Below, piece after piece: positions 2,151 through 31,410 of a DNA stretch of 32,000 nucleotides. Source of the DNA: Candidatus Omnitrophota bacterium (lineage in GTDB: Bacteria > Omnitrophota > Gorgyraeia > Zapsychrales > JANLHA01); the NCBI GenBank assembly GCA_963662715.1, contig OY759724.1:2940001-2972000 (forward strand), given 5' to 3'. Under the pieces are notes generated by a model that did not search any database, was not told the origin of the DNA, and saw only the letters and a program-made list of their open reading frames with translations. The translations under genes were made by a program, and so were the position numbers. Numbering within the stretch: the stretch's first letter is position 1; each line of letters begins with the position of its first letter.

Positions 2151-2195
2151 TTATGACAACTTAAGGATATAGAAAGCGGTTTTTTGAGAGAGAAA

Positions 2196-3101: not shown

Positions 3102-4032
3102 TCTGCGGTCCTGGATTCAGGGCATCAGTTTTCTGATATTAACTTATGGCGGACGTTTCGGGCTGCGTTTAGGCCATTTTTTGCCGTGTTTTGCCTGCCC
3201 TTATGTGGGGAGTTGTTCTGGGCATTGTTATTTGATGGCTTTGCAGGGATCCATTTGGGGAGCCCAGATCCCCTGGGCCCATCTTATCAGCGTCAGGGGC
3301 CTCAGGGCCTTGGGCATGTTTGCCGGATTTTCTTTTTTAGTGATCATTTTCTCTAAAACCTGGTGCGGCTGGATTTGTCCTTTCGGCACTCTGCAGGATT
3401 GGATCTCCTGGGTAAGGAGAAAACTCGCTGTCCGGGAAGCGGAATTTTCCGAAAGTTTCCGGAACGCCTTGAAACCGGTGAAGTACATTTTACTGGTTTT
3501 GCTCATTATCATTCCTATGTTCATTGCCAATGCCGGCCTGCATCCTGACTTTAAACTGCCTTTTTGTCAACTATGCCCGGCCAAGCCTCTCATGCCTGTA
3601 TTTGAAGGAAATTTTCAACATTTTGCCATTGATACCACCAATACCATCACCTTTGTGATGAGTGCATTATCCATGCTGCTTACCGCCGGATTTTTGGTCG
3701 GCATGATGTTTAAAGACCGATTTTTCTGTATATTCTGTCCTCTTTTGGCGCTCATAAGCCTGTTTGACAGATTTGGACTTCTGCAGTTAAAGAAAAATAT
3801 TCGGTCCTGTACGGGCTGCGCCCATTGTGAACAAATATGTCCGATGGATATCAGCGATGTCCATCGGGAAGAACAGAAAGAGCCGGTCATCTCCCAGGAT
3901 TGTACGCTTTGTTTGAAATGCGCTGAACACTGCCCGGAGGATAAAACGCTCTCTTTGGAATTCATGAAAAAACCCCTTTTTTCTTCTTCCAGGAAATATG
4001 TGGCCCGGCATTCGATAAAAACAAAAAGGTGA
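3088..4032 (+). CDS. Polytopic membrane 4Fe-4S protein, NapH/MauN/YccM-like
   Basis: TTG start at 3088 lies 7 nt after SD AAGGAGG (3074-3080). Several TM segments carry CxxCP/CxxxCP motifs (CFACPY, CGWICPFG, CQLCPA, CIFCPL). The C-terminus has two ferredoxin motifs, CTGCAHCEQICP and CTLCLKCAEHCP. The longer ORF from 2884 overlaps the previous gene and is not used. Confidence 0.75.
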   Translation: MSLFNLRSWIQGISFLILTYGGRFGLRLGHFLPCFACPYVGSCSGHCYLMALQGSIWGAQIPWAHLISVRGLRALGMFAGFSFLVIIFSKTWCGWICPFGTLQDWISWVRRKLAVREAEFSESFRNALKPVKYILLVLLIIIPMFIANAGLHPDFKLPFCQLCPAKPLMPVFEGNFQHFAIDTTNTITFVMSALSMLLTAGFLVGMMFKDRFFCIFCPLLALISLFDRFGLLQLKKNIRSCTGCAHCEQICPMDISDVHREEQKEPVISQDCTLCLKCAEHCPEDKTLSLEFMKKPLFSSSRKYVARHSIKTKR

Positions 4033-4037
4033 TATTT

Positions 4038-17243: not shown

Positions 17244-18176
17244 ATGAAAAAGAATATTCTAACCATCTTGCTGGGGGTGGCGATACTGACTTGTTTTTTC
17301 GTGAAAATGGTCTCTGCCGAAGACATGTATCCTCTCGCGATCTTGTCTTTTGAAGAACGGGGAGCCGGGTTGAAAGGTCAAGGGGCCAATGTCCGGGACC
17401 TGTTATTCGCGAATCTGATTGAAAACCCCAAGCTTCTTATTGTTGAGCGTTCCGAACTGGACAAAATTCTGGATGAATCGGAACTGAATCTCTCCGGGAA
17501 TGTTTCGGCTGATCAAGCCACCCAAATAGGCCAGTTAACCGGGGCCAAAATCATTGTCACAGGGTCCATATTCAAGGTTGACAACAATACCCATATCGTG
17601 GCCAAAATCATCAGTACTGAAACGAGCAAAATGTTGGGGAAGAGCGTTAAGGGGGCGGAAGGTCTTGACGTTTTAGTGGGGCAACTGGCCCGGGAAGTCA
17701 ACACGGCTATCAATGAATCTGCCGAAAGCCTTTTGCCGCCTCCGGTTGATAAGCGCCAGAGCATCGAGAAGATTCAAAAAATGATCGAGGGCAAACAGCT
17801 TCCCGTGATCTCCGTGTCCATTCCCGAAATGCATCTCAGCCAGGCAGTTCCCGACCCGGCGGCAGAAACCGAGATTACCTACATTTACAAAGAAGTCGGC
17901 GGATCGATCATAGACGCCGGTACAGGAGATATCTCGAAAGTGGACTATAAAGTCGTGGGGGAAGGGTTCAGTGAATTTTCAACCCGTATTAAAAATCTTG
18001 TAAGCGTGAAGGCCCGGTTAGAAGTGAAAGTCTTGAATAAAGAAGGCCATGTCGTTGCCGTAGACCGCCAGACATCGGTTAAAGTTGATTTGAATGAAAT
18101 GCTGGCCGGAAAAGCGGCCCTGCAGGAAGCGGCGGCCATGATCGCAGAACGCATTATTCCCAAAATGGCTCAGTAA
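17244..18176 (+). CDS. Secreted protein with an N-terminal CsgG/LpoB-like module
   Basis: SD GAGGAGG and a signal peptide. LAILSFEERGAG...LLFANLIENPKLLIVERSELDKILDESELNLSG...IGQLTGAKIIVTGSIFK is the pattern typical of CsgG-fold periplasmic or lipoprotein modules. The C-terminal half is unassigned. Confidence 0.65.
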   Translation: MKKNILTILLGVAILTCFFVKMVSAEDMYPLAILSFEERGAGLKGQGANVRDLLFANLIENPKLLIVERSELDKILDESELNLSGNVSADQATQIGQLTGAKIIVTGSIFKVDNNTHIVAKIISTETSKMLGKSVKGAEGLDVLVGQLAREVNTAINESAESLLPPPVDKRQSIEKIQKMIEGKQLPVISVSIPEMHLSQAVPDPAAETEITYIYKEVGGSIIDAGTGDISKVDYKVVGEGFSEFSTRIKNLVSVKARLEVKVLNKEGHVVAVDRQTSVKVDLNEMLAGKAALQEAAAMIAERIIPKMAQ

Positions 18177-18226
18177 GCCCGGATATGCTGGCTCACACCA
18201 GATAAGGCAGAGCGAACACAACTTTT

Positions 18227-21200
18227 ATGTTTGGAATTAATAAATTCATAAAATTTTTTCTAATTATCATTTGTATTGCTGTTATTCCTGCTGTCGGGGC
18301 TGCCCAGCCGGCTGAGCATGTCCCGAAAGAACCTGTCAGTCTGGCGGTTATCCCCGGGGCAGGGGAGAGACAGCCGTCTGATTTGGTGATAGCCAATTTA
18401 GAAGTCCATTTATCCTCTTTGCCGGATGTCTCTTTGGTCGAAAGAAGCCTCATTAATAAGGTTCTTCAGGAAATTCATTTAGGGGAATCAGGACTGCAGG
18501 ATAAAAAACAGGCCGTCACAATAGGTCAACTGGTTGCGGCTGACATTCTGGTTTTTGTGAAAAAAGGACGCCCTTCCCTGGAACATAAGGAGCAGATAAC
18601 ATCCGGAACAGACACGGATATTGTGCTTATCCGGCTTATGGAAACCCGGACAGGAATTATCCTCGGCTCCCTGTTGGAAGATGCAGAACGCCTGGAATCT
18701 GATCTCCCATCCATTCTCTCGCATGTTCAAACGGCCATCAACAAAGAAAAAATTCCTTTAGAAAACCGCAAACATATCGGTATCCTGGCCATAAAGAATA
18801 ATGAACCCGGGACAAGTCTTGACGGGGCAGCGGAAGCTTTGCAAATGTTTCTGGCCATCGATCTACCCAAGGCGCCGAATGTGATCATGTTAGACCGTGA
18901 CCATTTGCAGTATCTGCAGACCGAAAGAGCCCTAACCGGGATGAATTTAAAACTGAAACACTCCACCTTTGTTGTTGAAGGAGGTCTGCAGTATGAAGAA
19001 GGGCGTCAGCAGATTATTGTTTCCGTTGTTCTCCGTTCCTTTTCCGGAACAAACAGCGCATCGGAAAAAATGACTTTCACCGTTGATAAAGACGACCTCC
19101 CCAAGGCCAGAGAGGTGATCGCCCAGGGCATCCTGCAAAAACTTGATGTGGAAAAGACTCCGGGACAATCTCCGGCGGCGGATAAAGAAGGAGAGCTTTT
19201 TTTAATGCAGGTGCCGCTTTATCTGTCCAGCGGTGATTTGGAGGCGGCTGTCAGATATGCCGAAGTGGCTTATGCTCTTCTCTCCAATCAAGAGGCCCGC
19301 TATTGGGCTGCCCGGGCATGGTATGCTCTTGGCTGGGATTTGGTTGATAAATCCATGGGCGATTCTTTTCGGAGTAGCGCGAGCGCTGTCAGAAGGACCA
19401 GAACCCTCGGAGATCAATTTTCACCAGGAGGGACTCAGGTTGTCCCCCTGCGCAGACCCGGTGAGGCAGGGAGAGCCGAGCGTTTCCAAAGCGGCAACTC
19501 CAATATCGTTCGAACAACAGAGCAGAGGCCCGGACAGCAGATAGAATTCTGGGGGGACGGGAGACAGGTTCGACAGCCAGCGGATTCTTCACGGCCAACG
19601 GCCGCGCGCATCGAAAAACCGCGTCGCCTTGAAGGACGGGAACATAATTCCTCCGGGGCAACATCATCCGGACAAGGAAGGGACCAGGATGCTTCCCAGA
19701 AAGACCAGAGAATCCGTTTTCTTTCCGCGTTAATCCGGTCTTACACCCTGATGGAAGAAATGCTTGCCGTTCATATCCGCGATTACGAGTCAGATACGCA
19801 AAAAAATATCGTCCTGCCCGACCCGCGGGATGATTTTGAGAATGTTTCCCGTCCGGAAGACCGCCAGCGCAACCTTGCCCTTAAGTACAGAATCGGCCGG
19901 GATGACACGGACGTTTTCTGGCTTTTTAAACAGCTGGTTCAAATTCGCAATAACCTAAATGAACAGCAACGTGATTTTTATTTGCAGCATTATACCGAAA
20001 GCCTCAAAGCCCAGACAGCTTACTGGCTGAGCTGGAAAGATAAGACGGAAATGATCAAGCAGTACTACCGTTATGACCCCAAACTATCCGCCCAAATCAT
20101 CCAGCAGGTCGTAGATGCCTTTATGAAAACCTCGGACGGGCCTCCGGCCCCTAGGCTCAAAGGTTTCATCGATATGCTGGCTCTGGGGCGCGGCAGAGCC
20201 TTGTCCCCGGAAGAAGAATATGTTTACCGGAAATTCACAACGCATGAGGATGTTTTTGTCCGCTTTGCCTCCCAGAAGCAGTTGATGCGTGCTGACCCGG
20301 TCGCTTATGCTCAAAAGGCTTTGAACATTTTTATTCAGGAATTCCCTTATGATCATCCCTACCGCACACTGGACAACGTGAGTCTTCTCCCTGACTTTGT
20401 GAAACCGGTGTTTCACCGTGCGGCTCTTTCCCATAGGCAAGAGATGCTCCTGTTAGCGGAAAAATTATTTGAACCGATGATAAGGAATCAGGACATGGTA
20501 CAACTGGTGGCCTGGCGGGACTGTTTCTGGCCGTATGTCAACGGATTGGAACTGGATGGAAAGAAAGAGGAAGCGCAAAGGCTTGTTCAGCAGGTGAGCA
20601 AGATTCTGGAACAGAAACAATATTTTAATTTTTCCAACGAAGCCAAGCGTCTGCGGGCGGAACTGGATTTGAAACTTGTACAACTTGGCGCTAAGCAATC
20701 TCCCAATACCGAACTGGAACGATATTTTTCTTTCCAGGAACGGCCTCATTATATCCGTCTGCGCCCGGAATTGGAGGCTCCGCGGCTGAATGATCCGCCG
20801 ATCGATGTTTCTTCCTTCAGTCCGATCCAGCTTCCCACGAAAGGGCTCAACACAACCACAAGCAGCCGGACCCGCGATGTTGTTAAGAACGGATTCTCCG
20901 GAAGCTCCTTTGCCAAAGGCTATACGCGGGTTATCGATGCGGAAGGCAATGAAACCTATACAATTATGGACATGGATATTCAGCGGGAAAAGACGAAAAA
21001 GAAAGGCGCCTGGCAGCAATACTCAACCCGCCGTATGCCGGTCCGGCTGGTCGCCACCCAGCAGATGGATATCAGAGGGAATCCACTCCAGGAGCGGATT
21101 CTCCAGAAGAATTATTGGATTGACCATGATAAAGTCTATATCCTGCAGCAGAGCCGGAGCAACGATGCCCTGCTCATAACAGCTTTTGAACAAAGCCTGC

Positions 21201-22234
21201 AGAATAATCAAAATAACCGCTGCTTAGGGGAAGTCTCGGTGCCTTTGGGCCATATTAAAGAATATTTCCCTTATTATGTTTCAGCCATGACAACGGGACC
21301 GGAAGCCCTTTACGTCGGGACAGCAGGAGGGCTTATCGTTTTTCCCAAAAAGGGAGGAAAAATTTTTCAAAACACTTCGCAATTCAGTTCCCTGCACCGC
21401 AGATATGAACCGTACTATCCGGATAAAAAAGAGAACACAAGCCCTCCCAATGCTTCCGGACAGGCAAAGTTGCTGACGGAAAAAGACGGTCTTCCGGATA
21501 ATAAAATATTGTCCCTGGCTTATTGTCAGGGGAAACTTTACATGGGCCTCGGCCCTTTGGCCGAGACACAGATGGGGTTAGTCGGCAATTGCGGATTTGC
21601 GGCTTATGATCCCGAAACAGGGTCCTACGAACTTATTGCCTCCAGCCGTTCTATGGAAAAACGTAATGCCCTTGAACAGGGAGACAGTTATCAAATCACG
21701 ACGATTTTAGGGGATGAAAAACGGAACTGTCTATGGCTGGGGCTCTCCGGCAATCCGGACTATAACGGGATCTGGCGGTATGATATGGAAACCGGCCGGC
21801 TCAAACGTATCCTTAAAGAGGACTTCTCCCTGCAGGATATGCGCTGGGCCGGCAGTAAAATTCTCTACTTAATGACCCAGACGGGGATTGTTCAATTTGA
21901 CCCGGACACGTCGACCCGGACATGGCTGTTGGGACAAATAGGTTCTGCTTTAAGCGGTCTACAGGGACCTCACCCGCCTAAAAATTTTTCTGGCCAACCG
22001 CTTTGCGGGCATCCGGAGACCCGTTTGTGGCCTTTTGCCATGAGGGATGACGATCTTTTTACTGTGAGCTGGGATGGTTATGACGTTCTTTTACACCGCA
22101 AAGGACAGGAAGCTGTGGGAAAAAGTGTCTTTGACCAGAGAGCCACCGCCGTTGAGTTTAAGGCCTTTATCGATGCCAATGACGAGGGCGTTTGGCTGAT
22201 CACCCAATATGGAAATGTCTACCTGATTCAATAA
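18227..22234 (+). CDS. Giant (1335 aa) secreted multidomain protein: two CsgG/LpoB-like modules, a disordered R/Q/S/G-rich insert, a helical/TPR-like region and a C-terminal beta-propeller
   Basis: One uninterrupted ORF with a signal peptide (IAVIPAVGAA|QP). Module 1 is LAVIPGAGE...VIANLEVHLSSLPDVSLVERSLINKVLQEIHLGESG...IGQLVAADILVFV. Module 2 is IGILAIKNNEPG...NVIMLDRDHLQYLQTERALTG. The C-terminus has Reg_prop-like strings (DGLPDNKILSLAYCQGKLYMG, CLWLGLSG...GIWRYD). Confidence 0.8.
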   Translation: MFGINKFIKFFLIIICIAVIPAVGAAQPAEHVPKEPVSLAVIPGAGERQPSDLVIANLEVHLSSLPDVSLVERSLINKVLQEIHLGESGLQDKKQAVTIGQLVAADILVFVKKGRPSLEHKEQITSGTDTDIVLIRLMETRTGIILGSLLEDAERLESDLPSILSHVQTAINKEKIPLENRKHIGILAIKNNEPGTSLDGAAEALQMFLAIDLPKAPNVIMLDRDHLQYLQTERALTGMNLKLKHSTFVVEGGLQYEEGRQQIIVSVVLRSFSGTNSASEKMTFTVDKDDLPKAREVIAQGILQKLDVEKTPGQSPAADKEGELFLMQVPLYLSSGDLEAAVRYAEVAYALLSNQEARYWAARAWYALGWDLVDKSMGDSFRSSASAVRRTRTLGDQFSPGGTQVVPLRRPGEAGRAERFQSGNSNIVRTTEQRPGQQIEFWGDGRQVRQPADSSRPTAARIEKPRRLEGREHNSSGATSSGQGRDQDASQKDQRIRFLSALIRSYTLMEEMLAVHIRDYESDTQKNIVLPDPRDDFENVSRPEDRQRNLALKYRIGRDDTDVFWLFKQLVQIRNNLNEQQRDFYLQHYTESLKAQTAYWLSWKDKTEMIKQYYRYDPKLSAQIIQQVVDAFMKTSDGPPAPRLKGFIDMLALGRGRALSPEEEYVYRKFTTHEDVFVRFASQKQLMRADPVAYAQKALNIFIQEFPYDHPYRTLDNVSLLPDFVKPVFHRAALSHRQEMLLLAEKLFEPMIRNQDMVQLVAWRDCFWPYVNGLELDGKKEEAQRLVQQVSKILEQKQYFNFSNEAKRLRAELDLKLVQLGAKQSPNTELERYFSFQERPHYIRLRPELEAPRLNDPPIDVSSFSPIQLPTKGLNTTTSSRTRDVVKNGFSGSSFAKGYTRVIDAEGNETYTIMDMDIQREKTKKKGAWQQYSTRRMPVRLVATQQMDIRGNPLQERILQKNYWIDHDKVYILQQSRSNDALLITAFEQSLQNNQNNRCLGEVSVPLGHIKEYFPYYVSAMTTGPEALYVGTAGGLIVFPKKGGKIFQNTSQFSSLHRRYEPYYPDKKENTSPPNASGQAKLLTEKDGLPDNKILSLAYCQGKLYMGLGPLAETQMGLVGNCGFAAYDPETGSYELIASSRSMEKRNALEQGDSYQITTILGDEKRNCLWLGLSGNPDYNGIWRYDMETGRLKRILKEDFSLQDMRWAGSKILYLMTQTGIVQFDPDTSTRTWLLGQIGSALSGLQGPHPPKNFSGQPLCGHPETRLWPFAMRDDDLFTVSWDGYDVLLHRKGQEAVGKSVFDQRATAVEFKAFIDANDEGVWLITQYGNVYLIQ

Positions 22235-22258: not shown

Positions 22259-23176
22259 ATGGACTATATCTTAAAAGAAAAAATCCGCGTGGGCATAAGC
22301 GCCTGTAACTTCGGGGCCAAGGTGCGGTGGAATCACGCCGGATGGGATAGGGCCAGCCTGATAGGCAGACAGAAATTCGATTATTTGTGGACTCCCATCT
22401 GTCCTGAAATCAACAGCGGCCTGGGAGTTCCCCGGCCGCCGATGAAATTGGTCAACGGCAACGGCGATGATCTTTGGGCAGGCCAGGCCAGGGTGAAAAA
22501 TAAAAACGGACGGGATGTCAGTGAAGATGTCAAGAAAGGAGCCTTAACCTCTTTGCAGATACTAAAACAGGCGGATGTCGAAGCTTTTGTTTTTATGGAA
22601 GGCAGCCCTTCCTGCGGCGTTTACCGGACCACATTAAAAAATAAAAGGCTGGGTAAGCCGCCGGGTGTCTTCGGGGCCCTTGCCTTAAAAGAAGACCTTT
22701 TTCTTATTCCGGCGATTGATTTAGAAAGCCCCTGGAAATGGTGGGATTGGAGCCGAAGACTGCATGCTTTTGTCTGGCTCAGACGCCAAGCCGTTAATAC
22801 CAAAAAGGATATTTACGACATCTGGCATATGCTTAAATTTCTTTGTCAGGAAGTCGATGTCGGACGCTCAAATGACATCGGCCAAAAATTAGCCAACGCT
22901 CCCCAGAAAATCTGTGATGATTTCGTGGTGCCATGGAAGACTGATGTTTTGCAGTTAATCAGAAGGCCATCCACCTTGAAAAAAATTTACGCCATCATGA
23001 TTAAACATTATGCCCATTACAGGAAACAATTTGGCCTTAAACCTAAAATTCTTCAGCCTCCGGAGATAACGCAGGGGAAACGGAACTTTATCGAGGAATT
23101 AGGGAAAATGGAACGGAAGGCGGCTCAGCAGGGTTACCCGTTTGCCGGCCGGCCGGTGATATATAACCCGTCATGA
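22259..23176 (+). CDS. DUF523 plus DUF1722 fusion protein (YbgA-like)
   Basis: IRVGISACNFGAKVRWNHAG, TPICPEINSGLGVPRPP and FMEGSPSCGV indicate DUF523. The C-terminal helical part (WKWWDWSRRLHAFVWLRR...MIKHYAHYRKQF) resembles DUF1722. Confidence 0.8.
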   Translation: MDYILKEKIRVGISACNFGAKVRWNHAGWDRASLIGRQKFDYLWTPICPEINSGLGVPRPPMKLVNGNGDDLWAGQARVKNKNGRDVSEDVKKGALTSLQILKQADVEAFVFMEGSPSCGVYRTTLKNKRLGKPPGVFGALALKEDLFLIPAIDLESPWKWWDWSRRLHAFVWLRRQAVNTKKDIYDIWHMLKFLCQEVDVGRSNDIGQKLANAPQKICDDFVVPWKTDVLQLIRRPSTLKKIYAIMIKHYAHYRKQFGLKPKILQPPEITQGKRNFIEELGKMERKAAQQGYPFAGRPVIYNPS

Positions 23177-23264
23177 AAATTCCCGAGAAAGTTATCCATT
23201 TAACCTTTGAAATATCCTAAAGGCATCAGAAACGAAGACTCATCGAAAAGGAGGGAATATCTTT

Positions 23265-23294
23265 TTGGCCCTACCCCGGGAGTTATGATATAAT
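23265..23294 (+). promoter_or_regulatory. Sigma70-like promoter candidate for the peptide/CPBP/radical-SAM operon
   Basis: The -35 is TTGGCC (23265-23270), the spacer is 18 nt and the -10 is TATAAT (23289-23294). It lies about 38 nt upstream of the small ORF. Confidence 0.35.
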
Positions 23295-23331
23295 TTTTTT
23301 GTCAGCGGTTTTAAAACAAAAGGGGAAATAA

Positions 23332-23496
23332 ATGAAGATTTATTCAGGGAGCTTAAAAGAACCCCCGGGCACTTTCCTGCATGCCGGATATTTATCGGCA
23401 GCGAATGAGAACGCGATCTTTGTTAAAACACCGATCGTATTATCGGCACTGCTTGTCTTATTATTACTTCTTAAAAAAATATTTCGTAAACCGTAA
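23332..23496 (+). CDS. Unannotated 54-aa peptide: candidate RiPP precursor or protease substrate
   Basis: Not in the ORF track because it is under 60 aa. ATG follows AAAAGGGGAAATAA. My hand translation is MKIYSGSLKEPPGTFLHAGYLSAANENAIFVKTPIVLSALLVLLLLLKKIFRKP*. The C-terminus is a hydrophobic helix plus a basic tail. The stop lies 21 nt before the CPBP gene. Confidence 0.55.
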   Translation: MKIYSGSLKEPPGTFLHAGYLSAANENAIFVKTPIVLSALLVLLLLLKKIFRKP

Positions 23497-23517
23497 ATAT
23501 GAATTTTTAAAATTTTC

Positions 23518-24240
23518 ATGAACCATGGTTGTTTAAAAAGAATGAGCTCTTCAACACAGGAGCTCTTTTTTATTTGGTTCGTTCTGCTGGTTTATGTCTT
23601 TTTATTTTACGGGATATGCAAGCTAACGACAGGTTTTTACTCTTGGCCAAGACTGCTTCTTCCGAATGCCTGGCTTTTCTTGGCATCCCTGTTATGGATC
23701 AGGCGGAAATCCACAACGTATTTTGCCATAAAACATATCCAAAATACCAAGGAGTTGTTTGTCCTGGGCACCGGGAGCGTCATACTTATGGTCTTTTTAA
23801 ATCAATATCCCGTGAAAGAGAGCCATCATGCCGTAATCCCTCATTTATTGTTAAAATTCATTTTCCTGGCCGCGATCGCCTCTATTTGTGAAGAGGTCTT
23901 TTTCCGGGGGATCATGTTGAATTCCCTAAAGAAATATTTCAACAACGGAATCATCTCTCTATTACTAACATCCGTTATATTTGCTTATCTCCATCTGTCC
24001 CAGGGGACTGTCGTTTTTATGCAAATGTTCATTTTGTCGGTTATATTATGCCGTTATACTCTGGTCAGCAAAAATATCTACGGGGCTTCGGTCATTCACC
24101 TCTGCTGGAACACCGTATATTACAATCAGTTTATCCTTGGCCTCAGTCAAAAACTGATTTTCACCTGTTGTGCCGTTATGACGTTCACCGTTTTCGTTTA
24201 TATTTTGTTTTCGGCAGAAAAGCATGAAAAAAATCATTGA
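23518..24240 (+). CDS. CPBP-family intramembrane glutamic endopeptidase (CAAX protease/Abi family)
   Basis: Polytopic, with the three family motifs: EEVFFRG (EExxxR), FAYLH (FxxxH) and HLCWN (HxxxN). Confidence 0.8.
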   Translation: MNHGCLKRMSSSTQELFFIWFVLLVYVFLFYGICKLTTGFYSWPRLLLPNAWLFLASLLWIRRKSTTYFAIKHIQNTKELFVLGTGSVILMVFLNQYPVKESHHAVIPHLLLKFIFLAAIASICEEVFFRGIMLNSLKKYFNNGIISLLLTSVIFAYLHLSQGTVVFMQMFILSVILCRYTLVSKNIYGASVIHLCWNTVYYNQFILGLSQKLIFTCCAVMTFTVFVYILFSAEKHEKNH

Positions 24241-25621
24241 AACCCGGTCGCTTTATTTTAAAAAGCCTTCCTTCAGAGATATCAGGGGAACATCCTGTTT
24301 GTTGATATGGGGGGATTTGGGGCAGTGGCTTATCGTTGATTCGGAGTTTTTAGACTTTCTTGACACATATGCATCCGGAGACTCCCTGAAAAACCATATC
24401 ACGAAATATATTCAAAGGAAAGGCTTGGAGCCCCGGAAGCCCTTTATCACGGCCCTGAAAAAGAACGCCGAGGAATTGTTCAGCCGGAATATCCTTTCCC
24501 ATTCCGGCACAGCCTTCAGTAAAAAACCGGAGGGAAGGGATATCGCCAATATAACAATTAACCTGAACAATGACTGCAACTTGAAATGTTCCTGGTGTTA
24601 CAATACGAAAAGGCAGACCCCGGAAATGCCAATACAAAAAATGACCCAAGCTATCGACAAAGGCAAAAGATTTTTTTCGAAAAATGCCTCCTTTTTTATC
24701 TTGGGGGGAGAACCCTTTATGAATCAGGAAAGATTGCTTGCGGCGGTGCAGTATGGATTAAAAAGCTTTCGAATGCCTGTTTTAGTGTCAACAAATGGGA
24801 CTTTAATCAAGAAAGAAGTCGCAAGGAAACTTGCCGCAAAGAATCTCCAGATTCAAATTTCCCTGGACAGCCCCTATGAAGAGAAACATGATGCCGTCCG
24901 GGGAGCCGGATCTTACCGGAAAGCCGTGAGAGGGGTCAAGATTCTCGTCGATGCTGGTGTTTATACCGTGTTGTCCATGGTCTATACCCGTGATAATTAT
25001 CATGATATTGAGGAATACTTTCGTTTAGCGGAAACTTTCAACGTGAATGAAGTGCGTTTTATCCCGCTGCGCCTGATTGGCCGGGGACTGGGCTTTAAGG
25101 AACTCATGCCGAATCAAATTTCGGTTTTCCGGCATCTCATCCAGTTGCTTAAAAAACATCCGGGCTTTTTCCGCCTTTTAAAAAGGGATTTCTTCACCAT
25201 CGCCATCAATAAATGCCGTTACTCGCAAACCGGTACGAATTGCGGATTGGGACGAAAAGTTATTTTTGTCGATGCTGACGGTAAAGTCTATCCCTGTCCC
25301 AATTTTGTCAAGGAAAGTTTTTTGTGCGGAGACCTGAACCGAACGGACCTGGGGGACATCTTGAAAACATCGCCATTCCTAGATGATCTGCAAAACCGGT
25401 ATAATATAACGCTATATTCAAAATGCCGGGATTGTCATTTCCGTTTCTGGTGTTCCGGGGACTGCCGGGCCGAAGCCCTGGCTGTGTCAAAATCACATTT
25501 AGCTCCGTCCCCGCACTGCCAAGAATTACAGTCTCTCTATAAAGAGATGTTCTGGTTAATCGGGGAAGGATATGTTAAGAATTTCTACCGGGATTATGCC
25601 CACGGCTTATCGTTTATCTGA
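24224..25621 (+). CDS. Radical SAM/SPASM-domain peptide-modifying enzyme with an N-terminal RRE/PqqD-like extension
   Basis: CX3CX2C motif CNLKCSWC (Cys118/122/125, nt 24575-24598). GGEPF. SPASM cysteines CGLGRKVIFVDADGKVYPCPNF and CRDCHFRFWCSGDCRAE. About 105 aa precede the rSAM core. The start overlaps the CPBP gene by 17 nt. Confidence 0.9.
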   Translation: MKKIIETRSLYFKKPSFRDIRGTSCLLIWGDLGQWLIVDSEFLDFLDTYASGDSLKNHITKYIQRKGLEPRKPFITALKKNAEELFSRNILSHSGTAFSKKPEGRDIANITINLNNDCNLKCSWCYNTKRQTPEMPIQKMTQAIDKGKRFFSKNASFFILGGEPFMNQERLLAAVQYGLKSFRMPVLVSTNGTLIKKEVARKLAAKNLQIQISLDSPYEEKHDAVRGAGSYRKAVRGVKILVDAGVYTVLSMVYTRDNYHDIEEYFRLAETFNVNEVRFIPLRLIGRGLGFKELMPNQISVFRHLIQLLKKHPGFFRLLKRDFFTIAINKCRYSQTGTNCGLGRKVIFVDADGKVYPCPNFVKESFLCGDLNRTDLGDILKTSPFLDDLQNRYNITLYSKCRDCHFRFWCSGDCRAEALAVSKSHLAPSPHCQELQSLYKEMFWLIGEGYVKNFYRDYAHGLSFI

Positions 25622-25726
25622 TAATTCAGGTGCAATGAAAATAGTGTCAGCGACCGGGGATATCCTTACAGGGTAAAAATCATTTTATTGACCATAAGCA
25701 AAAAATCTGATAAAAATTTTAATGTT

Positions 25727-26395
25727 ATGCGTATTTTGATTGTTGAGGATGAAAAAAAATTAGCAAGTGTGATCCGCAGGAGCCTCAAAGAAAAAGATTA
25801 TGCTGTCGACATTGCGCATGATGGCAATGAAGGACTGTTTCTCGCTGAGGTCAATCCGTATGATTTAATCATATTGGATATTATGCTGCCCCAAAAAGAC
25901 GGTATCTGTATTTGCCGTGCCTTAAGGAGGAAGAAAAACGACGTTCCCATTTTAATGTTAACGGCACGAGATGATGTTGAGGATAAAATTACCGGCCTCG
26001 ATTCAGGAGCTGATGATTATCTCACAAAACCATTTGCCTTTGGCGAATTGCTGGCTCGGGTAAGGGCTTTAATACGGCGGAAACAAGACGTAAAAACAAC
26101 CAGATTAAAGGTCGCTGATTTGGAGTTGGATCAGTTGACCCATACGGTGAGCCGGGGGGGACGGATTATTGAACTCACAAGTACGGAATATGCCCTTCTT
26201 GAATACTTGATGCTCAATGCCAATCAAGTCGTCACGCGGACAATGATATCAGAACATGTCTGGAATGATGATTTTGATACTTTCTCAAACGTCATTAATG
26301 TTTACATTAACTACCTCCGGAAAAAAATCGACAACCATTTTGAAAAAAAGCTGATCCACTCCATAAGAGGCACCGGATATATTTTAAAAGAATAA
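25727..26395 (+). CDS. OmpR-family response regulator (CusR-like)
   Basis: MRILIVEDE, DLIILDIMLP, LTARD and GADDYLTKPFAFGELLARVRALIRR form the receiver. A winged-helix output ends in IRGTGYILKE. ATG at 25727 is preferred over the TTG at 25688 in the ORF track. Confidence 0.9.
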   Translation: MRILIVEDEKKLASVIRRSLKEKDYAVDIAHDGNEGLFLAEVNPYDLIILDIMLPQKDGICICRALRRKKNDVPILMLTARDDVEDKITGLDSGADDYLTKPFAFGELLARVRALIRRKQDVKTTRLKVADLELDQLTHTVSRGGRIIELTSTEYALLEYLMLNANQVVTRTMISEHVWNDDFDTFSNVINVYINYLRKKIDNHFEKKLIHSIRGTGYILKE

Positions 26396-26403
26396 TCCCA
26401 ACT

Positions 26404-27882
26404 ATGCATATAAGATCGATTCGTTTTAAGACGACATTGCTTTATTCGGGAATCCTGTTGGGGATTCTTCTCGCCTATAACAGTGTGCTTTATTTTTCTC
26501 TTCGTTCCATTTTAGTGAGGGATGTTGATGAAGAACTGAAAATAAAAGCCGGTGAGATTTCCAATATTCTGCTGGCCTACGAAAAAATAAAGAATACGTC
26601 TTTGCACCCCATGAGTGTCCTCGAAAATCTTCTGCAAAAACATGGTGTTTTGCCGGATAGGGCTGTCATCGTTGACGATCTCTGGCGTTCAAACTTTAAG
26701 ACTTTAAAGCTGAAAGAGGACTATATCAACATCCTTAATGTTTCCGGGCGTTCTCTCCTGCATTCGAACAATGTGACACCGGGAATAAAAGATTTAATAT
26801 CTGAACAGTTCGGCTTTTCGAACAATGAAGTTTATTGTGGAACTGTAGAAAAAAGGTCTTTAAAAGTACGGGTCATTAATCTGCCGTTCATATATAAGCA
26901 CAATCTGCCCTTAACGATTCAGGTCGCAACGCCCCTTAGACCCGTTCATCAATTTTTGGCCAGGTTTATGATGATCAGTTCAGGATGTATCCTCGGAACG
27001 ATCGCTTTAACGAGTTTCCTGGGAAGTTTCTTTGTCAAGCATATTCTAAGGCCCGTTGTGGCGGTGACGAGAACGGCAAACGATATCAGCCACATGGATC
27101 TGGCCAAAAGAATCTCTATGGGAGATACGGACATCGAGTTGAAACAGTTAATCGATTCATTCAATGCCATGCTTGAACGGCTGGAGAAATCTTTTATTCA
27201 TATCAATGAATTTAATTCTTATGTCGCCCATGAACTTAAAACACCTTTGGCGATTGTCAAAGGTGAGCTTGAATTAGCGATTGAACAACTTAAGGAGAAA
27301 AATGAAAATGACACAATCCTTTCTGACTGCCTGGAAGAGATCGACAGGATGATCAAGATCATCAAAGATCTTCTCTTTTTAGCAAAAATTGATTATAAAC
27401 CTCAAATATTAAAATTTGAAAAAATAAATTTTCAGAAATTTTTTGAGGAGATCATAGAGCACGGCACGATACTGGCATCTGAAAAAAAAATAAAATTGAC
27501 AGCAGATTCTTTAAAACTAAAGGAAACTTTAACCATTGATGCTGATAAAGTACACTTGCGACGTCTCTTTCTGAATATAATAACCAACGCAATAAAATAT
27601 ACTCCGGCTAACGGAAACATTCATTTATCTGTAAAGCGGGAAAAAGACCATTTGTTTTTTGATATCTCCGATACCGGAGAGGGGATTTCGGAAGAAAACC
27701 TGCAGAAAATATTTGATAAATTTTTCCGGGTGGATAAAGAGGAAACGACACAGAATGCGGGTTTTGGATTAGGCTTAAGTATTGCGCTTTCTATCGCTAA
27801 AGCCCACAAAGGGGATATAAAAGTCAAGAGCAAATTCAATGAAGGAACCACCTTTACCGTTATCTTGCCATTATCAACATAA
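26404..27882 (+). CDS. Sensor histidine kinase (2 TM, periplasmic loop, HAMP, HisKA, HATPase_c)
   Basis: H-box SYVAHELKTPLAIV, N-box NIITNAIKYTP, DTGEGIS and GFGLGLSIALSIAKAH. The start lies 8 nt after the regulator gene. Confidence 0.9.
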   Translation: MHIRSIRFKTTLLYSGILLGILLAYNSVLYFSLRSILVRDVDEELKIKAGEISNILLAYEKIKNTSLHPMSVLENLLQKHGVLPDRAVIVDDLWRSNFKTLKLKEDYINILNVSGRSLLHSNNVTPGIKDLISEQFGFSNNEVYCGTVEKRSLKVRVINLPFIYKHNLPLTIQVATPLRPVHQFLARFMMISSGCILGTIALTSFLGSFFVKHILRPVVAVTRTANDISHMDLAKRISMGDTDIELKQLIDSFNAMLERLEKSFIHINEFNSYVAHELKTPLAIVKGELELAIEQLKEKNENDTILSDCLEEIDRMIKIIKDLLFLAKIDYKPQILKFEKINFQKFFEEIIEHGTILASEKKIKLTADSLKLKETLTIDADKVHLRRLFLNIITNAIKYTPANGNIHLSVKREKDHLFFDISDTGEGISEENLQKIFDKFFRVDKEETTQNAGFGLGLSIALSIAKAHKGDIKVKSKFNEGTTFTVILPLST

Positions 27883-28082
27883 AAAATCATTCGTTCCATC
27901 CGGACAGCTGTCCCTTCATAATATTTTTATTTCCAACGGCTTGCAGCATCCCTTGCCATTTTTAAAAAAATAAGAAAATTTTAATTTTATTCTAACGTTC
28001 TTCTTATCGATCGTTTGTTATAAATAGATCGGGAAAAAAGGATGTTTAGGGATGCCGTAAAAAATATACTGGAGGGATAAAC

Positions 28083-28223
28083 ATGTTTGAGATGATCATA
28101 ATGATAGCCTGGATTGTAGGTATTGTCTTGGGAATTATGTGGCTGTTCTTACCCTGGATCATGATTTCAAAAATTGATGAGGTTATCGAAGAGTTAAGGA
28201 AATTGAATGCCAAAAATATTTAA
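28083..28223 (+). CDS. Unannotated 46-aa small membrane protein (hypothetical)
   Basis: SD GGAGGGA lies 5 nt upstream of the ATG. My hand translation is MFEMIIMIAWIVGIVLGIMWLFLPWIMISKIDEVIEELRKLNAKNI*, giving one TM and an amphipathic tail. The stop lies 19 nt before the tandem-REC gene. Confidence 0.4.
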   Translation: MFEMIIMIAWIVGIVLGIMWLFLPWIMISKIDEVIEELRKLNAKNI

Positions 28224-28242
28224 GAGGGAGGAGGGTTTTGAC

Positions 28243-28959
28243 ATGGAAAAGATATTGATTGTCGATGATCAAGCGCGGATACGGGAAACCTTTGGCCGGG
28301 TATTAAGCAAGGACGGGTATTCCGTCTTCAAGGCCTCTGACGCCGATCACGCAAATGAGATTTTGAAGAGAGAAAAAATCGATTTGATGTTGCTCGACAT
28401 GAAAATGCCGGAAGTGGGAGGAGAAATTTTATGCGAAATAAAAAGGACATTTCATAAAGAAACGAAAGTCATTGTTTGCAGCGTTTATCCTTTGGATGAC
28501 CAAAAACAGATGATAGAAGGGGCCGATGATTATTTTGACAAATCCGAAGGGTTGCGTGTCCTCAGAGAAAAGGTTAGCCATGTCCTTAACCGTTCAGATC
28601 AAAAAAAAAGGCTCCTTATCATCGATGACGAACAAAAGGTAAGGATCCTTTACTCCATTATTTTGAATAAGGCTGGCTACCTGGTTAAAAGTTTCGGAGA
28701 TAATCAGACAGCGCTCAGTTATTTGAAACACACGGGAACTATGATCGATCTCTTGATTCTTGATTTAGCCATGCCTCAGATTGACGGGTGCTGTTTTTTC
28801 GAGATTATGAAAATAAGACATCCTAATACGAAAATACTCATTGCCAGTAATTATGGGCTCGACACCCAGAAATTTATGATTTTTGATGCGGATGATTATT
28901 TCGATAAAACACAAGGCAACGCTTTATTGCTTGGGAAAGTAAAAAAACTAATAGGATAA
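28243..28959 (+). CDS. Tandem receiver-domain protein (REC-REC, no output domain)
   Basis: ATG at 28243 follows GAGGGAGGAGGG. REC1 reads ILIVDDQ...LMLLDMKMP...ADDYFDKSEG. REC2 reads LLIIDDE...LLILDLAMP...ADDYFDKTQG. Both keep the acidic pocket, the acceptor Asp and the Lys. Confidence 0.8.
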   Translation: MEKILIVDDQARIRETFGRVLSKDGYSVFKASDADHANEILKREKIDLMLLDMKMPEVGGEILCEIKRTFHKETKVIVCSVYPLDDQKQMIEGADDYFDKSEGLRVLREKVSHVLNRSDQKKRLLIIDDEQKVRILYSIILNKAGYLVKSFGDNQTALSYLKHTGTMIDLLILDLAMPQIDGCCFFEIMKIRHPNTKILIASNYGLDTQKFMIFDADDYFDKTQGNALLLGKVKKLIG

Positions 28960-28978
28960 TCTAAAAAGGAGGTGGGCC

Positions 28979-29590
28979 ATGACGAACAAACTGATTATTA
29001 TCGCTGTTATTACAGGACTCATCATCGGAATCGTGTCTCTGGGAATTGAAGTAAAAAAACTGCGGGCAGAAGAACCGGCTTCGGCAACGGATACCAGACA
29101 ACAGCAAAATCCTTCTAAATTCCCTGACGTCTGGACAGCAGCTGGCAACCGTTGGGACCCTTACTCTGAACTAATGCAGTTTCAAAATGAGATGAATAAG
29201 CTGTTCCACGAAACGTTCAGGGACGAATTGTGGCGCATGGGAAACGGGGAAAACCTTTATGAGTTAAATACTGACATCAAAGATAATAAAAATAACTATC
29301 TTATCAGTATGGATATCCCCGGTATGGAGAAAGAAAACATCAATGTCGAAGTGAGGAATAATACGCTCTTGGTCTCCGGTGAACGCAAAGAAGATACCCA
29401 GGAGGAAAATGCCAATTACTATAGGCAAGAACGCAGTTTTGGTTATTTCACACAACGCTTGCCCCTGCCAGAAGATGCCGATTCCTCGGAAATTTCGGTC
29501 ACCTATAAAAACGGGGTTTTAAAGATTGCAGTCCCAAAATTAGCCAAGACCAAATTTCAAAAGGAAGCTATTAAAATAAAAGTCAATTGA
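28979..29590 (+). CDS. Hsp20/alpha-crystallin small heat-shock protein with an N-terminal TM segment
   Basis: SD AAGGAGGTGGG. TM segment LIIIAVITGLIIGIVSLGI. ACD region YLISMDIPGMEKENINVEV...LLVSGERK...RSFGYFTQRLPLPEDAD...YKNGVLKIAVPK. Confidence 0.85.
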   Translation: MTNKLIIIAVITGLIIGIVSLGIEVKKLRAEEPASATDTRQQQNPSKFPDVWTAAGNRWDPYSELMQFQNEMNKLFHETFRDELWRMGNGENLYELNTDIKDNKNNYLISMDIPGMEKENINVEVRNNTLLVSGERKEDTQEENANYYRQERSFGYFTQRLPLPEDADSSEISVTYKNGVLKIAVPKLAKTKFQKEAIKIKVN

Positions 29591-29617
29591 TTCCTATGCT
29601 AAAATAATTCATTTACA

Positions 29618-29655
29618 AAGGGCAGTAAATGCGTCGCTGCCCTTCGTATTATCTT
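29618..29655 (+). terminator. Possible intrinsic terminator after hsp20
   Basis: AAGGGCAG (29618-29625) pairs with CTGCCCTT (29637-29644) around an 11-nt loop. The following T-rich tract (CGTATTATCTT) is weak. Confidence 0.35.
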
Positions 29656-29709
29656 GTGGATATTAATAAATGTTACAAGTATAATTATTTAAAAATATTA
29701 TTCTAAAAT

Positions 29710-30930
29710 ATGGAATCGATCCTCATTGTCGGTATTATTTTATTTGCAGGCTTTCTTCTGGGAGAACTTGCAAAATTCATTAACCTTCCCAAGGTGACCG
29801 GGTATATTATCTCCGGGATCCTACTCAATCCGAGTATATGTCATATTATTCCAGTTGATTTCCCGGCCCACACAAATTTGATAACCAATATTGCCTTGGC
29901 TTTTATCGCTTTCTCGGTAGGGGGGACTTTGTCCTATCCCAAGATCAAAAAACTCGGAAACGTTATTTTGTCCCTTACATTTTGGGAAGCTGAATTTGCC
30001 TTTTTGACCGTCGCATTCATATTTATAATTGCTGCCCGCTATTTCCTCAATATCCCCGGGGCCTCATTCATAAATGTGTTTGTTCCTTTTGGACTTTTAA
30101 CGGCTTCTTTAGCCGTTCCGACAGATCCCTCCGCAACACTTGCCGTCATGCATGAGTATAAAGCCAAAGGAGACGTAAGTTCAACCATCATGGGAATCGC
30201 AGCTTTTGATGATATCTTAGGTATCATCAATTACAGCCTGGCTGTAGTTGTGGCAACGGTTCTTATTTCCCATACACCCTTGACCGCAAACACAGTTGTT
30301 ATAAAGCCGCTGATCATGATCGGAGGCGCCTTTCTGTTAGGAATAATCTTTGGAATTATCTTTAATGTCATTACGAAACTTATTAAACGGGAAACGGAAG
30401 GTATGTTTATCGTGCTTATCTTCGGGCTCTTATCCCTTTGTTTCGGCACGGCCTCTTTGCTTAAAATCGACGAACTGCTGGCGCTCGTTTCCATGGGATG
30501 CGTCGTGGTTAACTTTAACCATGCCCATGTGAAAATTTTTACTATGCTGGAACGTTACACCGAAGAACTTATATTTGTTCTCTTTTTTACTATAAGCGGC
30601 ATGCATCTTAATTTTTCTGTCATCAGCGAAAACTGGATGCTTATTGTTTTATTTATCCTGTTCCGGACCATTGGAAAATATTTGGGGGTGATGACAGGAA
30701 GTCATTTATCTCACGCTTCTTTTAAAATCAGAAAATACGTGACCGGCGGACTCATTCCCCAGGGGGGCATTGTGATCGGGTTAGCCCTTTTAACACAGCA
30801 GGAAGTCATATTTTCTTCATTTTCCAATATCCTGATTAATATCATTATCGGAGCGACGGTTTTTCATGAACTCCTCGGCCCGGTAGCGGCAAAAATTTCT
30901 CTCTTGAAAGCCGGAGAGATAAAGCATTAA
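29710..30930 (+). CDS. Cation:proton antiporter (Na+/H+ exchanger family, CPA2-like, no RCK/TrkA domain)
   Basis: 406 aa with about 11-12 TM segments. The N-terminus GFLLGELAKFINLPKVTGYIISGILLNPS is typical of Kef/NapA-type exchangers. Confidence 0.85.
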   Translation: MESILIVGIILFAGFLLGELAKFINLPKVTGYIISGILLNPSICHIIPVDFPAHTNLITNIALAFIAFSVGGTLSYPKIKKLGNVILSLTFWEAEFAFLTVAFIFIIAARYFLNIPGASFINVFVPFGLLTASLAVPTDPSATLAVMHEYKAKGDVSSTIMGIAAFDDILGIINYSLAVVVATVLISHTPLTANTVVIKPLIMIGGAFLLGIIFGIIFNVITKLIKRETEGMFIVLIFGLLSLCFGTASLLKIDELLALVSMGCVVVNFNHAHVKIFTMLERYTEELIFVLFFTISGMHLNFSVISENWMLIVLFILFRTIGKYLGVMTGSHLSHASFKIRKYVTGGLIPQGGIVIGLALLTQQEVIFSSFSNILINIIIGATVFHELLGPVAAKISLLKAGEIKH

Positions 30931-30996
30931 AGCAGAGGCGAAGCTACATGAGGCCTTTAGACACTCCCGGCTCGCGTATCTTTTCTCAAAAAACGT

Positions 30997-31410
30997 TCAG
31001 CCTCCGGTCTGTGACCGCAGGGTTATAACGATGTCAATAATAATAGCGGATATGGAAAGAATAAAGATAATCAGATAGTTGAGGTTTTCCCGGGAACGCT
31101 CGATGGATGTCAGCAGGTAAGTCAGCCCTTTGCGTTCCTGAGGATCAAGGGCATGCCCCTGTTCAAGTTTTGTAATGAGTGTCTGGCCGTGCACGGCATG
31201 CTTCCGTTTGCGGGAAATGTGATAACGGAAAAGGAAGAAGATCAGATTGGTGATCACGGCTAAATACCATAAAAGACGCACATAAGACGGGTGGGAATGC
31301 TGTACAATAATAATAGCGCGGAAAGAAAACGCCGAGGTCACGCCGACTAGGAAGAAAAGTGTCGCTACAGATTTAGGAAGGGCTTTCGGTTCACGCATAC
31401 TTTTTATCAT
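30997..31410 (-). CDS. Hypothetical membrane protein (about 3 TM), the only minus-strand gene
   Basis: The ORF runs 30997..31488 on the minus strand. The start at 31488 would overlap the divergent methyltransferase start, so the internal ATG at 31410 (MIKSMREPK...) is preferred. No SD is evident. Hydrophobic segments include LFFLVGVTSAFSF, LWYLAVITNLIFFLF and LIIFILSISAIIIDIVI. Confidence 0.45.
   Translation of the reverse strand: MIKSMREPKALPKSVATLFFLVGVTSAFSFRAIIIVQHSHPSYVRLLWYLAVITNLIFFLFRYHISRKRKHAVHGQTLITKLEQGHALDPQERKGLTYLLTSIERSRENLNYLIIFILSISAIIIDIVITLRSQTGG

Follow-up and report, generated by a model that had tools for sequence, protein, structure and literature searches.

What is made, and to what end, by a cassette of three genes that encode a peptide of 54 amino acids (aa), an intramembrane protease and a radical SAM enzyme? 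Such a cassette lies in a 32,000-nucleotide (nt) stretch of the genome of a Candidatus Omnitrophota bacterium (GenBank assembly GCA_963662715.1, contig OY759724.1, positions 2,940,001 to 2,972,000 of the forward strand), which is called the window below and from whose first letter coordinates are counted unless another locus is named. On one strand, a small open reading frame (ORF) of 54 codons (23332-23496, +; MKIYSGSLKEPPGTFLHAGYLSAANENAIFVKTPIVLSALLVLLLLLKKIFRKP) is followed after 21 nt by a gene for a glutamic intramembrane protease of the CPBP family (i.e., Rce1-like, type II CAAX; 23518-24240, +, 240 aa), whose stop is overlapped by 17 nt by the start of a radical SAM/SPASM gene (24224-25621, +, 465 aa). 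An initial annotation of this DNA had reported these positions, the gap and the overlap, all of which are present, and had taken the cassette for a RiPP-like system, i.e., one for a peptide that is made by the ribosome and modified after translation. Much of that reading survives, as the trio is conserved and its radical SAM enzyme resembles peptide maturases that carry a RiPP recognition element (RRE); the substrate, however, looks like the tail of a membrane protein and not like a leader-core peptide. We find that precursor, CPBP protease and radical SAM enzyme are a conserved functional unit, and conclude that the cassette is very probably a new peptide or protein maturation system.

The small gene and its family

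Whether the 54-codon ORF is a gene at all can be judged from its similarity to proteins found elsewhere. Against an independent N-terminal profile (123 family members, window peptide excluded) it scores 35.3 bits (E 2.8e-10), whereas the next-best six-frame segment of the window reaches E 1. This difference argues that the ORF is a real gene and a true, minimal member of a family of membrane proteins sharing an N-terminal motif. The family had to be collected by running a 32-position profile with HMMER exhaustively against 1.84 billion representative proteins, with matches of E 0.001 or better being kept, as no more than 5 proteins had been recovered when the short precursor profile was used in a word-indexed search. 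The exhaustive search returned 135 cluster representatives, in almost all of which (>90% of 135) the profile match begins at residue 1, and [FY]LHxGYxS stands at residue 15 in 123 of them. The signature thus reads M-x-[IVL]-[LFI]-A-x-S-(7 residues)-[FY]-L-H-x-G-Y-x-S-A; after it come a linker of acidic character, a transmembrane (TM) helix and a cluster of basic residues.

The 123 sequences were chosen by a pattern that required His at position 17 and allowed alternatives at 19, 20 and 22; even so, G19, Y20 and S22 are each found in 123/123. The other well-kept columns are L16 (120/123), S7 (114/123), F15 (113/123), A23 (110/123) and I3 (91/123). H17 is invariant also in 19 sequences derived from the loci described below and in 40 long forms of the precursor, and L16, Y20 and S22 share that invariance across the 19. 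Cys, on the other hand, is among the five commonest residues at a single one of the 28 N-terminal positions (once, at position 23). Of the aromatic residues previously singled out as possible targets, the family keeps F15, H17 and Y20, but neither Y4 nor F30.

The window peptide has the layout that defines the family. Its residues 1-23 (23332-23400, +) carry the signature in the form seen in alignments and column counts (M-x-I-x-[AS]-x-S ... [FY]LHxGYxSA), ending in F15-L-H-A-G-Y-L-S-A23; column counts make F15-L16-H17-A18-G19-Y20-L21-S22 (23374-23397, +) the invariant core, and it is there that the radical SAM enzyme presumably acts. Only 5 residues (A24-A28), none of them conserved, separate the signature from a TM helix at residues 29-47 (23416-23472, +; hydropathy 2.6 over 19 residues), after which comes the basic cluster KKIFRKP (23473-23493, +), predicted from the family-wide charge pattern to be cytoplasmic. 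The C-terminus of the peptide (LLLLLKKIFRKP) resembles those of complete short homologues that end in a helix and a basic tail, e.g., IYIFRSFRSRAKRSPG; five of them (P0149, P0172, P0177, P0183 and P0198) share the whole layout of motif, TM helix and basic tail. Going by its sequence, the peptide appears not to be built of a leader with a C-terminal core; its fixed N-terminal signature leads through the linker into the TM helix, and the basic cluster ends it. It contains no Cys, and the earlier exclusion of sactipeptide or ranthipeptide thioethers stands. A Shine-Dalgarno-like AAGGGGA can be read 5 nt before its ATG (23320-23326, +). The promoter-like signal attributed to the cassette does exist (TTGGCC-18 nt-TATAAT with a TG extension, 23265-23294, +, 10/12 matches), but such sites number 8 in the region against 8.2 expected in shuffled sequence, so that it is no evidence on its own.

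The window peptide stands near the lower end of the family in size. Of the 135 representatives, 88 have at least 250 aa (mostly 320-410 aa, with two hydrophobic helices) and the rest 44-195 aa; the linker varies from 5 to about 100 residues, no residue of it being conserved across short and long forms. The C-terminal half of the long forms is conserved in turn, in the blocks P-W-x-G-V, Y-x-D-P-x-x-A-T, Y-G-x-D-G-W-G and S-A-G-x-D-G-x-F-x-T-x-D-D, the last two of which resemble a motif of the pseudopilin GspG (PF08334, 24.2 bits in locus L010). GspG chains were also the only recurrent matches to long forms in the Protein Data Bank (PDB; E 0.012-0.7), and Foldseek against the PDB found a 37-column local match to the long-form domain and no whole-domain relative. 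The idea that the long forms are pseudopilins was dropped, since the PF08334/GspG similarity is local (about 35 residues, DGWG...S-x-G-x-DG-x-x-x-T-x-DD) and no whole fold matches; a local GspG-like motif is all that their sequences suggest.

In an AlphaFold2 model of one long precursor (P0128; predicted local distance difference test, pLDDT, 88.7), residues 1-20 are of low confidence, whilst residues 30-50 reach pLDDT 96-98 ahead of the helical hairpin, which suggests that this segment packs on the C-terminal domain. By this model the membrane should not separate the two ends of a long precursor, both being on one side of it. About half of the long forms have a Cys right after their second TM helix (e.g., L003, 4078-5286). 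An internal lipoprotein signal made of that helix and the Cys was considered and rejected as a general feature, since a strict lipobox occurs in 7/88 long forms only. A conserved cleavage motif was sought at the cytoplasmic end of the first TM helix (TM1) and not found; what is there is a generic aromatic belt, then Arg.

Neither Pfam nor NCBIfam has a model for the precursor motif. The motif, the radical SAM subfamily and the pairing of SPASM and CPBP proteins are without mention in Pfam, NCBIfam (June 2026) or the searchable literature, from which subscription journals may differ; the precursor family and its cassette are undescribed in the databases and literature searched.

The radical SAM/SPASM enzyme

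The third gene encodes what the initial annotation said it does, a radical SAM protein with a CX3CX2C motif and a complete SPASM cysteine set. In the radical SAM superfamily this motif binds the SAM-cleaving 4Fe-4S cluster inside a partial TIM barrel. PF04055 matches at 79.7 bits (cutoff 29.5), and C118/C122/C125 of the cluster motif (24575-24598, +) are invariant in 102 homologues. SPASM domains are defined by seven cysteines, CX9-15GX4C ... CX2CX5CX3C ... C, that hold two auxiliary 4Fe-4S clusters; PF13186 matches at 40.2 bits (cutoff 21.5), and the region at 25214-25519 (+) has the full set as C340-x12-G-x4-C358, C401-x2-C404-x5-C410-x3-C414 and C432, with C331 upstream, for two auxiliary clusters. 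Together with over 100 clusters of proteins that have about 460 aa, are 35-48% identical to it and share its N-terminal extension and invariant cysteines, the enzyme makes up a discrete family; its own nearest relative is 47-48% identical.

Which substrate such an enzyme might take is suggested by its relatives and by its N-terminus. The best NCBIfam matches are MftC (146.2 bits against a cutoff of 265), StsB and CbpB, all of them peptide-modifying; the best 25 of 86 NCBIfam matches all fall far below their cutoffs, those of the named maturases (SCIFF, StsB, CbpB, PapB, DynA, WgkB, AlbA, QhpD) among them. An AlphaFold2 model based on the 102 homologues (pLDDT 93.8) has a barrel-type core. Its residues 1-105 (pLDDT 83-97) are predicted as strands (10-12, 17-21, 24-29, 34-39) that precede three helices (40-47, 55-66, 72-87), which is the order of elements in RREs; these are PqqD-like winged helix-turn-helix domains of three strands and three helices by which the precursor is bound. 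Foldseek against the PDB ranks CteB, SkfB, SuiB and TigE first, in alignments mostly of about 450-480 columns that include the N-terminal domain, whereas the anaerobic sulfatase-maturating enzyme (anSME), which is without such a domain, aligns over about 374 columns only. The enzyme thus resembles peptide maturases and not enzymes of the anSME type, and the refutation that had been foreseen, i.e., that it might belong to the anaerobic sulfatase maturases, does not apply (TIGR03942, 88.2 bits against 349).

The extension of about 105 aa had been described as PqqD-like. A domain of RRE-like fold (PqqD-like winged helix) is indeed predicted at residues ~8-90 (24245-24493, +) from the model and Foldseek, and the enzyme model superposes over its full length on those RRE-containing maturases; the Pfam model PF05402, however, does not match the window protein. 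It matches weakly in 14/30 homologous N-terminal domains (best E 5e-4), and PqqD chains in the PDB reach E 0.045-0.5. Given the missing match, the RRE assignment rests on structure prediction, by which the domain is structurally supported as being of RRE type and would serve peptide recognition.

The CPBP protease and the predicted topology of its putative substrate

The assignment of the second gene, including all three catalytic motifs previously noticed, is borne out by PF02517 (68.9 bits against 22.4, E 4.7e-19). Of the motifs that this family carries on TM helices, EExxxR is present as EEVFFR (residues 125-130, 23890-23907, +), FxxxH as FAYLH (155-159, 23980-23994, +) and HxxxN as HLCWN (194-198, 24097-24111, +). 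In an eight-helix model with both termini inside, inner loops of 17 homologues hold on average 14.6 Lys and Arg and outer loops 2.8, and EExxxR is accordingly predicted at the cytoplasmic end of the fourth TM helix. A single record, P0027 (JGI contig, 703 aa, with a 349-aa unannotated gene upstream), fuses CPBP and radical SAM proteins in one chain, which also requires a cytoplasmic CPBP C-terminus.

As to the precursors, TM1 was found in 121/136 sequences (i.e., 135 representatives and the window peptide). Across the 121, the N-terminal tail (median 78 aa) has a net charge of -3.75, whilst the 15 residues after TM1 carry +2.9. With an acidic tail before the helix and a basic segment after it, the positive-inside rule predicts that the N-terminal tail lies outside and the basic cluster in the cytoplasm.

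Conservation of the cassette

A contig scan with the single radical SAM protein gave 2 loci, one of which (L002) holds a different radical SAM family; a metagenome scan with an alignment of the enzyme added 30 more, and their precursors were located by a profile of the first 28 residues. Already in L003 and L004 the gene just upstream of CPBP starts like the window peptide (M-[KH]-I-L-A-[GS]-S-L ... FLHAGY[IL]SA), though the products have 402 and 99 aa. Altogether, a motif-bearing precursor adjoins the radical SAM gene in 18/21 assessable loci, so that conservation of the small ORF next to homologous enzyme pairs, on which the RiPP-like proposal had been made to depend, is found; two further loci (L008 and L012) have the C-terminal domain of the precursor alone, at a contig end or after a frameshift. 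CPBP stands directly upstream of the radical SAM gene in 22/24 loci. The usual order is precursor, CPBP, radical SAM, with overlaps, and the overlapping or abutting genes suggest translational coupling; in L015, L018, L023 and L036 the precursor follows the radical SAM gene. One locus (L028, 2511-4250, +) has three signature-bearing precursors in tandem (93, 98 and 372 aa) upstream of one CPBP-radical SAM pair. When the search was anchored on precursors instead, three of four lay beside CPBP, two of these with a full radical SAM gene and the third with its next ORF cut by the contig end.

All-against-all clustering of ORFs in 35 loci found no other conserved gene, neither a transporter nor a second enzyme. 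Named homologues of the enzyme and the precursor come from metagenome-assembled genomes (MAGs) of Pirellulales, Planctomycetales and Myxococcota, and the cassette would thus be spread over bacteria of the Planctomycetes-Verrucomicrobia-Chlamydiae (PVC) group and Myxococcota. In one locus only (L003), an additional radical-SAM-like ORF lies just upstream of the precursor (2979-3986, +; CSNTCRHC, PF04055 E 0.002, weak YydG-like match).

Proposed mechanism

How the three products may work is sketched below. The conserved trio, the motif with its fixed place, the architecture of the enzyme with its RRE-like, radical SAM and SPASM parts and the charge patterns behind the topologies are what the sequences show; which site is modified and by what chemistry, in which order the events occur and where CPBP cuts is what we infer. 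The 54-aa product would be the substrate. Its extreme N-terminus M-K-I-Y-S-G-S-L (block 1, residues 1-8) would dock as a strand on the RRE domain, and this docking would bring F15-L-H-A-G-Y-L-S22, at its fixed distance of 14 residues from Met1, into the active site of the radical SAM enzyme; the invariant residues do lie in one 8-residue block at constant spacing from the conserved block 1-8, which is the geometry expected of a docking element and a core. A 5'-deoxyadenosyl radical would then abstract a hydrogen, and the two auxiliary clusters would complete an oxidative modification, in the cytoplasm and perhaps while the N-terminus emerges from the ribosome. The likeliest outcomes would be a C-C or C-heteroatom crosslink of Tyr20 and/or His17, or oxidation of Ser22. 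Afterwards helix 29-47 would insert in the cytoplasmic membrane, with the acidic N-terminal tail outside and the KKIFRKP tail inside, and CPBP would cut near the cytoplasmic face, either trimming the segment past TM1 or releasing the modified N-terminal peptide. A cut past TM1 is drawn by analogy, CAAX proteases trimming an anchor-side tail and Mrt proteases processing signals made of a helix and a basic cluster. We think it probable that the three genes are in this way a maturation cassette for a membrane-anchored peptide.

For the chemistry itself several candidates can be named. Tyr20 could be linked to the C-beta of Ser22 in a cyclophane of the triceptide type (an aromatic-x-x motif, PMC11499958); H17-A-G19 could not form such a link, as Gly has no C-beta. 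His17/Tyr20 or Leu16/Tyr20 could be crosslinked; the Glu/Tyr pair of PqqA has the same i, i+4 spacing as Leu16/Tyr20. Ser22 could become formylglycine, the family consensus S-A-Y-P-R having Arg at +4, and epimerization is a further candidate. Thioether chemistry is excluded by the lack of Cys; among the others no choice is possible from sequence alone.

A number of observations weigh against the scheme. The window peptide departs from the family consensus at positions 4, 5 and 24-26, and to the missing PF05402 match in its enzyme one must add the topology, since a tail that ends up outside would need the cytoplasmic radical SAM enzyme to act ahead of translocation. The cassette is also not always complete: L016 has CPBP and radical SAM genes and no precursor nearby (1/21), L001 and L009 have precursor and radical SAM genes with no detectable CPBP between them (in the former the two abut, in the latter a gap of 600 nt holds no CPBP match), and P0137 (L038, 5001-6053, also L039 and L040) has the full signature and neither enzyme gene within 5 kb, which indicates that some precursors are encoded away from the enzymes. 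The CPBP-radical SAM fusion, finally, was downgraded as proof of physical coupling, because a single indel could fuse genes that normally overlap out of frame.

Alternative interpretations

The classical alternative is a diffusible RiPP, i.e., a bacteriocin or signal, in which a modified peptide of about 23-30 residues would be freed outside by CPBP, or CPBP would be a self-immunity protein. Abi/CPBP proteins are known to serve as immunity in bacteriocin loci, the trio recalls the loci of Skf and streptide, some precursors are short and stand alone (54-140 aa), and the tandem precursors of L028 are arranged as in many RiPP loci. Yet the 35 loci conserve no exporter or other tailoring gene, the short forms have no conserved cleavage site after S22-A23, and two thirds of the precursors have 320-410 aa, with residues 25-55 predicted (pLDDT >90) to be packed on a folded C-terminal domain; taken together, we regard this alternative as somewhat unlikely. 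What the system matures or processes may instead be the tail of a membrane protein, and its product need not be a diffusible compound. Carried one step further, the same thought would have the cassette install a new protein-derived group (a Tyr/His crosslink, a quinone-like redox or metal cofactor, or a Ser aldehyde) on the N-terminal tails of membrane proteins, with CPBP as a dedicated processing or sorting protease. The enzyme is related to the cofactor-forming MftC and PqqE. If this reading were true, the cassette would be a new pathway by which PVC bacteria and Myxococcota modify and process the N-termini of envelope proteins, and not one for an antibiotic-type RiPP; we mention it as a rather unlikely speculation.

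Another question is whether the invariant block is modified or only recognized. Most RiPP families have a conserved leader and a variable core, and blocks 1-8 and 15-23 could form one docking surface, leaving the variable linker or the TM segment to be modified. The linker of 5 to ~100 residues, in which nothing is conserved across short and long forms, and the window peptide, which leaves 5 unconserved residues before its helix, make this quite unlikely, the more so because radical SAM maturases are known to modify residues such as the invariant H, Y and S (His and Tyr in cyclophanes, PMC11499958; Ser in anSME). It is very unlikely, too, that the enzyme acts on a lipid, a cofactor or some other protein, the membrane protein being a scaffold, a regulator or an unrelated neighbour. 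The locus without precursor and the precursor without enzymes nearby would fit such an arrangement, but the RRE-type domain, the full-length similarity to peptide maturases, the tight synteny with overlaps across phyla and a motif fixed at the very N-terminus speak against it. That the 54-codon ORF is a chance reading frame, with CPBP and radical SAM genes alone being real, we find hardly credible: it is short, was missed by gene callers and its promoter-like site is not above chance, but besides its match to the independent profile (E 2.8e-10, the next being E 1) it has the position and orientation of the precursors in 18 other loci, a Shine-Dalgarno-like site, and the layout of the complete short homologues.

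Relation to known systems

By its architecture the system would work like a radical SAM RiPP pathway, in which a ribosomal precursor is modified by the co-encoded enzyme and afterwards cut by a protease; what links it to such pathways is genetic association. It fits no named class, as the initial annotation had also held: every curated model tested falls below its cutoff, and the substrates that define those families are absent. The Cys donors that the core of a sactipeptide or ranthipeptide requires are lacking here. Its closest precedents are SkfA/SkfB/SkfC for the trio, CteB for the structure and MftC for the profile, from all of which it differs by a signature fixed from Met1, a membrane-anchored and usually large substrate, the absence of an exporter and a Cys-free L-H-x-G-Y-x-S.

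The streptide str operon had been cited as a precedent, but for a trio of peptide, radical SAM enzyme and CPBP protein the Skf system of Bacillus subtilis is closer, with a small precursor, a radical SAM enzyme bearing an N-terminal peptide-binding domain and a co-encoded CPBP-family protein; among the matches to the window enzyme, SkfB ranks with the best in both sequence and structure. The thioether that SkfB forms joins Cys to Met, and its auxiliary domain is of the twitch type, whereas here the substrate is Cys-free and the enzyme has the full SPASM set. SkfA, furthermore, has an N-terminal leader, a C-terminal core and no membrane anchor, and the skf locus also has transporter genes. CteB, the SCIFF sactisynthase (PDB 5wgg and 5why), is the best structural and PDB-profile match, with RRE, radical SAM and SPASM parts aligned over the full length, but identity is 18-19%, TIGR03974 scores 80 bits against a cutoff of 425, and SCIFF peptides are Cys-rich whilst the motif here is Cys-free. 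MftC (TIGR03962) is the best NCBIfam match and PqqE is among the PDB matches. Both are RRE-dependent radical SAM/SPASM enzymes that act on Tyr of a short ribosomal peptide; in the cassette, enzyme and RRE are one fused chain, and the Tyr belongs to a membrane protein, close to its N-terminus. Genes for mycofactocin or PQQ (an MftA-like peptide with C-terminal GVY, MftB/PqqD, MftD-F, PqqB/C) were found neither in the window nor in the 35-locus neighbourhoods.

Some resemblance to the triceptide synthases (ChlB, HaaB, HtkB) is also evident, as they are radical SAM/SPASM enzymes, Y20-x-S22 would fit their motif, and ChlB is among the sequence and fold matches. The crosslinks made by these enzymes run from an aromatic side chain (Trp, Phe, Tyr, His) to C-beta at the second residue after it (PMC11499958). 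ChlB matches weakly, however (47.9 bits over ~386/465 positions), and triceptide precursors have C-terminal cores, often repeated, behind leaders, with no membrane anchor and no CPBP partner. With anSME and AtsB the enzyme shares the SPASM fold, its core giving a close fold match; anSME oxidizes Ser or Cys in a short motif of its sulfatase substrates (C/S-x-P/A-x-R) with Arg at +4. The family consensus S22-A-Y-P-R26 has that Arg, but its Pro is at +3 and not +2, and the window peptide reads S-A-A-N-E; TIGR03942 (cutoff 349) is far from being reached, the enzyme here has the extra N-terminal domain, and the scanned region of the window has no sulfatase gene.

On the side of the protease, the closest likeness is to the myxosortases (MrtC/MrtP/MrtS/MrtJ), i.e., CPBP proteins paired with substrates that carry a signature, a TM helix and a basic cluster. 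Their models, Mrt_core included, are among the best NCBIfam matches to the window CPBP, yet at 14.9-33.8 bits against cutoffs of 75-250, which places it outside these families. Unlike in MYXO-CTERM, Synerg-CTERM and JDVT-CTERM substrates, the signature here is N-terminal and stands 5-100 residues before the helix, the long substrates extend past the helix, and a radical SAM enzyme belongs to the cassette.

The family described is one of many uncharacterized radical SAM/SPASM families, and enzymes of this kind with peptide-recognition domains have repeatedly given new chemistry (streptide, darobactin, triceptides, mycofactocin and PQQ). It is compact, with three genes, and well populated (over 100 clusters of the enzyme, 135 of the precursor), occurs in MAGs of at least Planctomycetota and Myxococcota, and its Cys-free target block matches no described class. 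Were the modification confirmed, either RiPPs would gain a new class or membrane proteins a new kind of post-translational modification, and a bacterial CPBP protease would gain a defined substrate, as few have. The 54-aa version in the window, being the minimal natural substrate, would be the most convenient one for reconstitution.

Surroundings of the cassette in the window

Directly upstream of the small ORF lies a gene for a TudS/2-thiouracil desulfurase-like protein (22259-23176, +; PF04463, 95 bits, residues 11-146) with a C-terminal extension of ~150 aa, which is not kept at other cassette loci. Before it, at 17244-22234 (+), a gene for a CsgG-like lipoprotein (PF03783, 45 bits) is followed by an ORF of 1335 aa, i.e., a large uncharacterized envelope protein with a weak N-terminal CsgG-like match as its only recognizable domain. 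On the other side, a response regulator of the OmpR type and a histidine kinase with HAMP and HisKA domains (25688-27882, +) start ~70-110 nt past the radical SAM stop, and a double-receiver response regulator follows (28207-28959, +). This two-component system was rejected as a part of the cassette, as it is not conserved beside the cassette in other loci and is probably unrelated.

The first 23 kb have for the most part a G+C content of ~0.45-0.53, which drops at the cassette and stays at 0.36-0.43 after it (23000-31000). Farther away, a cobalamin riboswitch (RF00174, 120 bits, full-length match, 1841-2048, +) precedes a run of ORFs (2184-5270), which are presumably B12-regulated genes, and a GTP-dependent phosphoenolpyruvate carboxykinase is encoded at 11849-13738 (+), the named nearest relatives of which are mostly from Candidatus Omnitrophota MAGs, at 66-70% identity.

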